Positions 10,154-13,100 are shown, counted from the stretch's first letter. The stretch: DNA of 64,000 nt from Amoebidium appalachense (GCA_963693365.1 CAVNZM010000004.1:7973093-8037092); one strand, 5' to 3'. Notes: generated by a model not told the origin, from the sequence alone. Made by a program: numbers and translations.

Positions 10154-13100
10154 AGCACCGAGGGCGGCATTTGCTGCACCGGTTGGGATGGATGACAATG
10201 TGGACTCGGACGGAGAGGCACATATGGAAGTGGGCAGCCCACACAGAGGTTAGTGTGTGCGTGTGTGTGTGTGTGTGTGTGTGTGTGTGTGTGTGTGGGG
10301 GGGGGGGGGGGGGGGGGGGGGGGGGGGGGGGGGGGGGGGGGGGGGGGGGAGAGGGAAGGGGGTGAGTGGGTGGGGGATAGGGGTGGATGTGTGGGTGGGC
10401 GGGCGTGGGAGAATGCTCGAGTATGTGGTGGTGGTGGTAGAGGCGGTGGTGTGTGTGTTTGTGTGTGTGTGTGTGTGTGTGTGTGTGTGTGTGTGTGTGT
10501 GTGTGTGTGTGTGTGGGGTAGTGTGTGGTAGTGTGTGTGTGTGTGCGTGTGCGCGTGCATGTGTGTGTGCGTGTGTGTGTGCGTGTGCGCGCGTGTGCGC
10601 GCGCGTATCTGTGTGTGTTTTGGGGAGAGGGGGGGGGGGGGGGGTAGCTGGATACTGGGTGGTGGTGGTGGCTGGTTGGGGGGGGGGGGGGGGAGAGAGG
10701 GGGGGGGGGGGGGGGGGGCTTGGGTATGGGGTAGTGGTGGTGCTGATGCTGGTGTTGGTGGTGGTGGTGGTGGTGGGGGTTGGGGGGGGAGGGTGGGCAT
10801 TACTCATGCAATGGCTTGTCCAAATTTACCTTTGCATATCGACTACTGCCTGTGAGAGAGGGAAGGAATTTTGGGTGGCGGTTGGTTTTGCTGAGTTGCT
10901 CGGAGAGAGGAGAGAGGAGGGGGAGGGGGATGGGGAGGGGAAGGAGGAGGGCGAGAGGGAGAGGGAGGGGAAGGGAGGGAAAGAGGGAGCGAGGAAGGGA
11001 GGGAGGGAGGGCGGGAGGGCGGGAGGGATGGAGGGAGGGATGGATAGAAGAGAGAGTGTGTGTTAGTGTGTGTGGACGACGAGGGCCGGGCGTGTCTTAT
11101 ATCCATTGGAGATTCTAGTCGGTGCCTGAAGTGATGGTGCATGCTGATGGCAGCAAAACAACCGGACAAACCATCGTTTGCGTGGCAACAAAACAGGCCC
11201 ACCCTGCATAGTTGAGATGGTTGTAGGGAGTTATGTGATCCTTTTTTTTTTTTTTTTGCTGTTTCGAAGATATCAAGTCGCTAACACGCGTTACCAAATT
11301 TTCTCCCTGCCTTGTGGGGAAACCAATCAACAGAACCAGAGGACAAGTGGGGTATGTATTCCCCTCCCTCCCCCCTCCCCCCCCCGTGGGCCCCCCCTGA
11401 GGATGGGCTCTGCTTATTATGCATGCTCTTTATGTATGGTTTGCATTCTGCATCGTGTTATCCGTTGTCCTTGTGTATTTCGTACTTTATGACGCATTCA
11501 AACCCCCCCGCTCCCCCCGCGCCCCTTTTTCTCCCCCCTCCCCCCCAGTTCCGCCCTAGTAAGCGTGTTACTACCCTGCGGCGTGGGTCAAATCTCATAT
11601 TTTCCCCTCTGATTGCGAATTCTGCGGCCTTCGGGACTTAATTCTTTTCAGCTGGTGTAGTATGTTAGCCAGGGAAGTATCGACTTAGGTATCGACGGGG
11701 GAGCTTCCTAGAAGCCCCGTCTCCTGAGTTCCTATCTATATTTTTCTTGCTTCTGCTTACTGCTGCAACTTTAACCCCCGGCCTTTCCCACTGCCCTTGC
11801 CTGCATAAGCAACCCTGCTCGTCTCTGATCAAGACGGGTGACCTACTCATGTTCAAGTGAAACAGTATCTGAGTTGGGTTTCGTTAACGAGGGGAATAGG
11901 TCGAAACTCGGGTACTGTGGATGACGTGGGCCCCCCCTGAGGATGGGCTCTGCTTATTATGCATCCTCTTTATGTATGGCTTGCATTCTGCATCGTGTTA
12001 TCCGTTTGTTCTTGTGTACTTCGTACTTTTTGACGCATTCAAAACCCCCCTCCCCCCCCTCCCCCCCTCCCGCGCTCTTCCCCCCCTATTGATGGCGAGT
12101 TCTGCTTGTAGAGCAAACTCTTAATGCCTTTTTTGGAATCTGTATTTTGTTGTCCGCGTTGAGGTGTGCTTGTTTTCTTTGCTTTTAGTCTGCTTGCAGA
12201 TTTTGTAGACTCTGCGTTCTTAGATTGCTGCTCCTTGAACAACCCTGCTCGTCTTTGGTGGCCAAGACGGGTGGACTCGCCTATTGCTGTTGAAACAAAG
12301 TATGGGTTGGGAACCACGCGCGAGAGGTTAAACGAAACCCATGCTTTTGTGGAGGCATAGGAACCCCCCTGATGATGGGCTCTGTTCACGTGTCTTCTGC
12401 CTGCACACCTAAATTGTTTGATTTTGGATTTCCCACTTTTGTGACGTTTTGTTGTTGCTCTTTGTTTTCTCCTCCATATTTCCAACCCTCTAACACATAC
12501 ATCACCCCCCTCCCCCCCCCCCCCCCCCCCCCCCCCCCCCCCCCTCCTTCCCCCCTCTCGCCCGCCCCTCTCCCACCCATCCACCCACCCTTCTACACAC
12601 ATTCTTGCTCCGTTCCTTGCCCTTCCGCTCCTTCATGTGTTTTCCTCCTTGCCTTGCTACGCTGCTCCCCTTACACCACGGTCACACGGGAGAACTATCA
12701 ACCAAACAAAACACAACATACTATCCTTGGCAGTCCGACCACCGAAATTTCACCCATTTCCTCACAACTATCTCACGTCTATCCACGCTATCCACAGAGC
12801 AACGGGGTCTGCATGACGAAGTTGAGATAGCCTTTAGTGAAATTCTGTCCAGCTACGAGAGCCAGGGGGATGCCGACGTCTACCATCTGTGTGAGCGCAT
12901 GCACGAGGTTTTGCAGCAGGTCCTGAATGAGGTTGCTGCAAATCCGGGCCGGTACGCTGTGGTACGTGACCCGGCCCGATTCGATGTTTCTGTGACCCGA
13001 AGCCTCTCCGTAAGCTATTATCTTCATAGATGTTCGTCATGTAGATGCGCGTCCAAGTGTGATTGCTACATCTCGCTCGTATTTGTATTCTTTAGATTTT

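Follow-up and report, generated by a model that had tools for sequence, protein, structure and literature searches.

The 64,000-nucleotide stretch of the Amoebidium appalachense genome analysed here (GCA_963693365.1, CAVNZM010000004.1:7973093-8037092; hereafter the window) carries five copies of a structured motif within a family of repeats that end in poly-C, and judging from the sequence we consider it likely that this motif is a hammerhead ribozyme, with predicted self-cleavage. Its core strands follow one another in reversed cyclic order, and the catalytic strand is predicted to be split between A9 and G10.1 and joined by a two-helix junction. The reversed order is known; the split core, the kink-turn strut and the retroelement setting are new within the searchable literature. 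No report of the split layout or of a link to Naiad retroelements was found in our search, for which subscription papers were mostly out of reach. A preliminary description of the same DNA had proposed the ribozyme from its three core strands; it made no mention of a kink-turn-like loop, of linker self-complementarity, of the retroelement context or of a Naiad link.

Because the answer should not be built into the test, the window was searched with an order-blind descriptor, in which the blocks S (NUH), G (GAAA) and C (CUGANGA) were allowed in all six orders, with a stem III of at least 6 bp, a stem I of at least 3 Watson-Crick bp and a span of 120 nt. Five matches were returned, all in the order S-G-C, with N17 at 7058, 11875, 12308, 18870 and 38478 (minus strand). 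These are the sites at which the preliminary description had located the core strands and predicted the cuts. The other five orders, among them those of hammerhead types I-III (CGS, GSC and SCG), gave no match in the window, which confirms the claimed opposite order NUH, GAAA, CUGANGA. Locally shuffled windows gave no match either (0/60 at a stem III of at least 6 bp and 0/60 at 9 bp or more, 0/120 in all). As an empirical null, the bare three-word pattern was found 51 times in metagenome contigs; stem III reached only 2-5 bp in all 51, versus 9-13 bp in the window copies, and judged by this length the metagenome matches are chance. At the gathering score no Rfam family was found over the window, and at E<=10 the region 11500-12550 gave four weak matches, all below threshold. 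A partial match to Hammerhead_1 (E 6.2; 14.2 bits versus a threshold of 34) uses the stem II register of our model and is a weak but independent pointer to it. It had been anticipated that standard descriptors would miss the motif and that no existing Rfam family would be hit, and both expectations held.

The anatomy of the motif is given in Table 1 for copy D1. Stems I, II and III adjoin the core in A1, A2, D1 and D2, stem II reaching A9 only via the helices P1 and P2. The route 3' of A9 leads across P1 and past P2 to G10.1, so that the catalytic strand would be broken here and rejoined by the junction; two helices inserted at this point had been suspected before, and P1 and P2 are what is found there. 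The P1/P2 pattern had no match in metagenome contigs, and 13 matches to the 3' word of the motif in viral contigs all lacked the other blocks. Stem I comprises 4, 3, 3, 3 and 3 bp and stem II 6, 5, 6, 6 and 1 bp in A1, A2, D1, D2 and E1, respectively. A kink-turn is made up of a C-stem, a 3-nt bulge with U at L3, and G.A and A.G pairs in tandem. The sequence of the internal loop that separates helix I from stem III agrees with this consensus in A1, D1, D2 and E1, and hence in all three subfamilies, A2 carrying a G1b>C change; bending and binding of L7Ae are predictions. The linker between blocks S and G holds a palindrome in each subfamily, in A1 a different 10-nt one (7066-7075) and in E a 6-nt one (12317-12322).

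Table 1. Parts of the motif in copy D1 and copies of the repeat family in the window.
Feature	Position	Strand	Remarks
P1 5' strand	11805..11811	+	7 bp with 11951-11957; closing helix of the motif, bridge between A9 and G10.1; mean pair probability 0.93
P2 hairpin	11818..11838	+	7 bp; G10.1 follows immediately; hardly varies among the five copies
Stem II 5' strand	11840..11845	+	G10.1 = 11840; pairs with 11897-11902
Helix I 5' strand	11846..11855	+	pairs with 11922-11930; equivalent of the type-SGC stem I-II interaction helix, C-stem of the kink-turn
Kink-turn-like bulge strand	11856..11861	+	3 bulged nt, the last a U, followed by GA; GA at 11920-11921 on the partner strand
Stem III 5' strand and GUU triplet	11862..11875	+	13 bp with 11906-11918, pair probability 0.98; predicted cut 3' of U11875
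Stem I 5' strand	11876..11878	+	pairs with 11934-11936, 3 bp
10-nt palindrome in the 18-nt S-G linker	11881..11890	+	D1
Block G	11897..11918	+	stem II 3' strand, C11.1-GAAA-C (G12 = 11903), stem III 3' strand
Stem I 3' strand, CUGAGGA, P1 3' strand	11934..11957	+	C3 = 11937; CUGAGGA 11937-11943
Element D1	11547..12044	+	5'-truncated repeat, ends CAUUCAAA then poly-C; motif ~90-240 nt from 3' end
Element D2	38309..38725	-	motif 38548-38396, predicted cut 3' of 38478
Element A1	6858..7258	+	flanked by poly-C on both sides; motif 6985-7145, cut predicted after 7058
Element A2	18675..19069	+	motif 18797-18957; kink-turn G>C, stem I shortened, palindrome broken
Element E1	12090..12503	+	5' limit approximate; motif 12236-12388; 4-nt deletion in stem II 3' strand
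5'-truncated D copy	11385..11502	+	3' end only, starts inside motif
5'-truncated D copy	27523..27631	+	
5'-truncated A copy	29514..29670	+	
5'-truncated D-like copy	17779..17881	+	
5'-truncated E copy	36908..36995	-	

The independent sample consists of three subfamilies and not of five copies. Over the motif D1 and D2 do not differ, and over 418 nt their identity is 99.8%; A1 is 95.7% identical to A2 and A ~79% identical to D, and BLAST aligns E with the others only at its two ends; the three subfamilies of the preliminary description stand, but 'very divergent' is true only of the motif middle. Across A1, D1 and E1 the core positions (C3-U4-G5-A6-N7-G8-A9, G12-A13-A14, A15.1-U16.1, H17 and G10.1-C11.1) are invariant in 13/13 cases, compared with 24/65 other anchored columns (Fisher p 1.6e-5). 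As CUGANGA adjoins a conserved block, it was left out of a second comparison, which gave 7/7 versus 24/64 (p 0.002). N7 is the sole position of CUGANGA that varies, as had been noticed, and this is borne out across the subfamilies. Four distinct rows (A1, A2, D1 and E1) are too few for a covariance model; among them, pairs changed on both sides number 5/11 in stem III, 3/6 in stem II, 1/4 in stem I, 4/10 in helix I and 2/7 in P1, which agrees with the covariation previously claimed for stems I and II. The third pair of stem I is A-U in A and G-C in D and E. We judge the motif to be real and under selection.

Stem II of subfamily E had been described as poorly paired. This is true of E1, which lacks 4 nt of the 3' strand, but the deletion is confined to this copy: other E copies are intact and carry GAGT behind 12332 (13 contigs in sequencing run X1 and 5 in run X3, plus a loose-end consensus of 19 contigs in X3). 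With GAGT the upstream strand forms a perfect 5-bp stem II, which adds a U-A for C-G change. Within the D motif, variants at 1% or more amount to 12 rows at 11 positions in four runs, none of them in the core or the kink-turn. Two of these, 11844 T>C and 11898 A>G, would swap a stem II pair if they are linked. At 11843-11940 (run X1) and 11911 (run X14) short fragments of additional subfamilies were seen in which CGAAAC is retained and the letters of stems II and III differ; one of them also retains the kink-turn GA.

The preliminary description had placed the order of the blocks outside the known types, but it has already been described as type SGC and validated in vitro (Eckert et al., 2023, PMC10085705). 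The paper predicts 583 examples, five of which cleave at the predicted site in vitro, and all come from metatranscriptomes and none from genomes of known organisms. The reversed order as such is therefore catalytically competent. Like types SGC and CSG (HRIMA-1 and variants), the motif combines the reversed cyclic order with an intact core and pseudoknotted stems, and like them it has a helix, here helix I, that joins the strands distal to stems I and II. Unlike in these types, P1 and P2 separate A9 from G10.1 and so break up block C, with the covarying stem II strand ~100 nt upstream, both strands of the I-II helix continue into stem III across the kink-turn-like loop, the site is GUU, and the setting is a genomic retroelement instead of a metatranscriptome RNA; the motif length is ~153-161 nt versus at most 104 nt in type SGC/CSG. 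Eckert et al. assume that CUGANGA is inseparable from its stem II strand and their descriptors require so, the limits being a stem I of 4-7 bp, an S-G linker of 0-8 nt, U at N7 and a stem II strand 0-1 nt after CUGANGA (PMC10085705). Compared with these limits by reading, the motif also differs in that stem I of D and E has 3 bp, the linker of D and A1 measures 18-21 nt and N7 of A and D is G. It would therefore work like a type-SGC hammerhead but lies outside the type as it has been defined.

The motif belongs to a repeat family in which all ten copies checked (10/10) have a family-specific 3' end followed by poly-C. Half of these (5/10) start inside or 3' of the motif and the other half (5/10) 198-329 nt upstream of the predicted cut. 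We infer that the fixed 3' end, the frequent 5' truncation and the poly-C follow from target-primed reverse transcription into C-rich tracts. In other copies D extends further 5' than 11547, as the loose ends of 22 contigs in run X1 indicate, and what we call D may therefore be the end piece of a longer element, possibly an autonomous one. Upstream of D1, beyond a C-rich tract, lies the truncated copy 11385-11502 in like orientation, and two insertions into one tract fit as well as a partial tandem (pseudo-long terminal repeat, pLTR). A few back-joints occur in DNA contigs, with no tandem array in the window. D was present in 20 of the 24 sequencing runs among the matches listed, and 5014 and 1478 contigs in two DNA runs align to the 173-nt motif, which therefore represents a large repeat family. 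None of the listed runs with D is an RNA run; two further runs, presumably of RNA, do contain it. The loss of G1b, the shortened stem I and the broken palindrome of A2 are as expected of what is probably a decaying copy. Diverged fragments of the same repeat families with an incomplete motif lie at 49079-49136, 35432-35523 and 35812-35854 (all minus strand), a diverged minisatellite of ~65-bp period (19241-20006) directly follows A2 on the 3' side, and inside a D copy (11904-11914; runs X1 and X3) contigs show a junction to telomere-like repeats of the TTTAGGG type.

Among known retroelements, the copies most resemble Naiad and Chlamys, Penelope-like elements (PLEs) that are described as having no canonical hammerheads, some Naiads containing 'half cores' (Craig et al., 2021, PMC8557442). 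Shared features are the frequent 5' truncation, the fixed 3' end, a microsatellite target and a motif near the 3' end, and the insertion in (C)n tracts corresponds to the preference of Chlamys for (C)n and (CA)n (PMC8557442). In contrast to these elements, no ORF (open reading frame) or sequence homology is established here, and the window ORFs scanned contain no N-terminal GIY-YIG endonuclease, CxC motif or PLE reverse transcriptase domain; nor does the host, judged by its Cdc6 gene, resemble a sampled animal. The last ~400 nt of 37 Naiad consensi, named by file order, were read by eye without a statistical control, and a complete reversed-order hammerhead was recognized in 15/37, which is a lower bound; the other 22/37 gave no complete motif within this distance. 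By this reading, the split layout with an upstream stem II strand occurs in 7/37 (Amil, Aacu with two mismatches, Anas, 3_Chem, 2_Movir, Plae and EuTe), plain SGC in two (Smim, and Ptep with an unclear stem II) and CSG in six (1-3_Nbra, Hcon, Hpol with a GUU site, and Asuum). In three Acropora consensi the whole junction is readable, with 8 bp in P1, 6 in P2, 6 in stem II, 9 in helix I, 13 in stem III and 6 in stem I. They have a 7-nt bulge where the kink-turn would be, and every helix differs in sequence from that of the window motif. Hammerheads at PLE ends are established, often dimeric and often weak in vitro (Cervera and de la Pena, 2014, PMC4209133). With the type I hammerheads of PLE pLTRs and non-LTR retrozymes (PMC4209133; preprint 10.64898/2026.07.22.740005) the motif has in common a small non-coding retroelement and a palindrome-assisted dimer as likely active form. 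Those, however, have the order CUGANGA-GAAA-NUH and a minimal stem III, whereas the order here is reversed and stem III is long; the palindrome here lies between stems I and II, and the copies are dispersed, while retrozymes form tandem arrays. Two further observations were made on the published 3' ends. To the eye, Chlamys-1_cRei and Chlamys-1_cInc have 3' regions similar to the pyrimidine-rich stretch that precedes the D motif (11745-11803) and to the CAA-(C)n termini of A and D, a possible likeness over a short distance. The 3' ends of the molluscan Naiads Naiad_CGi, Sglo, Olur, Tgra and Pmar (PMC8557442, supplement) show no hammerhead words and share a conserved, structured-looking ~60-nt motif, possibly a different ribozyme.

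In the mechanism that we propose, two pseudoknotted stems and the P1/P2 junction between A9 and G10.1 would build a hammerhead fold that cleaves the RNA carrying it 3' of GUU. The cut would fall close to where the transcript of a retroelement, likely one of Penelope type (Naiad/Chlamys clade), has its 3' end. In this model the loop of the long stem III hairpin holds the cut site, a stem I strand, a stem II strand and GAAA and, with the kink-turn bending the arm, would dock on the two single strands at the foot of the hairpin, with the stem II strand on the 5' side and the stem I strand and CUGANGA on the 3' side. That stems I and II must form as pseudoknots or in trans had been pointed out before and is supported. 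Stems II and III stack coaxially in hammerheads (PMC4209133), and the far end of stem II should therefore lie ~25 bp steps from the kink-turn, whereas helix I gives only 9-10 bp steps and there is no linker on the stem II side. Hence a monomer would need a frayed helix I, or two RNAs would have to swap loops; Eckert et al. raise the same difficulty of reach for single-strand connections (PMC10085705). The linker self-duplex is calculated at -14.6 to -19.3 kcal/mol, and each subfamily has its own self-complementary linker centre. Because of these subfamily-specific palindromes and because PLE hammerheads act as dimers, we slightly favour a strand-swapped dimer nucleated by the linker palindrome as the active form, a strained monomer with frayed helix I being almost as probable. 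Cutting would free unit-length element RNA from read-through or tandem transcripts, stem III and P1 would afterwards hold the ends together for religation, and the reverse transcriptase of the autonomous element would then copy the RNA into poly-C tracts from the fixed 3' end. As the copies span both sides of the cut, cleavage cannot simply set the 5' end of the template, and release from tandem or read-through transcripts with religation fits the copies better than a 5' end defined by the cut.

Copies that span both sides of the cut, none of them beginning there, would also suit a hammerhead-derived structure that no longer cuts and instead lets the autonomous element's reverse transcriptase recognize the RNA or prime on it. 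P1/P2 and the bases 3' of CUGANGA are conserved beyond catalytic need, PLE hammerheads are, as mentioned, often weak in vitro, and in a preprint (10.64898/2026.07.22.740005) 8/9 tested retrozyme dimers failed to cut. We nevertheless regard a non-cutting structure as unlikely, though a serious rival, since all 13 core positions are kept while the helices turn over, with N7 alone varying, and since the three wirings of one core that we recognize by eye among Naiads (split, SGC and CSG) argue for selection on a three-dimensional active site.

Even less probable, in our view, is a plain type-SGC fold in which G10.1 lies two bases after A9 (as in HRIMA-1, CUGANGA-U-G), stem II forms with a downstream strand (11945-11949 in D1), and the upstream pairing is an off-switch or a folding aid. 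The downstream strand indeed pairs at 6/7 positions in A and 4/5 in D, with one G.G mismatch at the third position, and E holds the literal CUGAUGAUG of the published descriptor. Yet the downstream strand does not vary, unlike the stem II 3' strand, each change of which is tracked by the upstream strand, the E family included. The downstream register also competes with P1 (pair probability 0.90-0.98) and has two mismatches in the E family, and coral Naiads, read by eye, lack it but possess the upstream one. A chance origin, meaning a long hairpin in a repeat that happens to contain hammerhead words, could draw on the shortness of these words and the descent of the five copies from one family, but it is excluded by the shuffles (helices in 0/120), the metagenome null (0/51 pattern matches elsewhere), core-specific conservation, covariation and the same layout in unrelated sequence.

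The self-cutting split hammerhead, which we prefer, has several points that weigh against it. Relative to the minimum fold of a nested model, the open conformation is 5-12 kcal/mol less stable when the contribution of stems I and II is left aside, the best nested fold of D buries part of CUGAGGA, and the folding z-scores are weak (-1.4 to -2.0). Stem I has only 3 bp in D and E, and U17 is a slower cleavage site. Support is limited to three independent subfamilies, and the avoidance of the core by the D variants is weak on its own (by our estimate ~0.2 by chance with 11 variable positions). Not one of the ten copies in the window starts at the predicted cut (0/10), nor does any loose end among those listed start at 11876, and five of the ten have ~200-330 nt upstream of the cut, so that their templates must have been uncut or religated. 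Among 163 window ORF queries (14 plus 149 of 299 complexity-filtered ORFs) Pfam gave no match to a reverse transcriptase or endonuclease, and the five Chlamys 3' ends examined contain no CUGANGA. Finally, the A9/G10.1 split lies outside what Eckert et al. assumed to be possible, and catalysis by such a split is a prediction.

If the proposed reading is true, it contradicts the printed views that the CUGANGA block is inseparable from its stem II strand (Eckert et al., 2023) and that Naiad-type retroelements have no complete hammerhead (Craig et al., 2021), and permuted hammerheads move from unknown RNA replicons to high-copy repeats of eukaryotic genomes. The motif also shows what current hammerhead descriptors overlook. 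A more far-reaching idea, which we put forward tentatively and hold to be rather doubtful, is that the split core with its kink-turn strut is a fourth opening of the reversed-order hammerhead and an obligate strand-swapped dimer. It would then process, so far unnoticed, the whole clade of Penelope elements with an N-terminal endonuclease, a clade extending here to a eukaryote other than an animal through elements that target poly-C, and non-circularly permuted hammerheads would rank among the most abundant genomic ribozymes instead of being a metatranscriptome rarity. Constructs of 150 nt together with the natural compensatory variants make both the Penelope-type ribozyme role and the question of monomer or dimer directly testable.

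As to the remainder of the window, an intron-split gene for a Cdc6/ORC1-type AAA ATPase (57897-60991, minus strand) marks it as eukaryotic. A Cdc6 exon gave 59 matches at 33-48% identity (48 fungal, 5 animal, 6 without taxon), the best of them in early-diverging fungi, with no close relative. At 49930-51213 (minus strand) a 428-aa ORF has a start that resembles a signal peptide and about six repeats rich in cysteine that end with CC, and two long low-complexity ORFs (2699-4390 and 34173-35195, both minus strand) resemble real exons; none of the three has a Pfam match. Two diverged direct duplications ~515 bp apart and 75% identical were found at 43704-44691.

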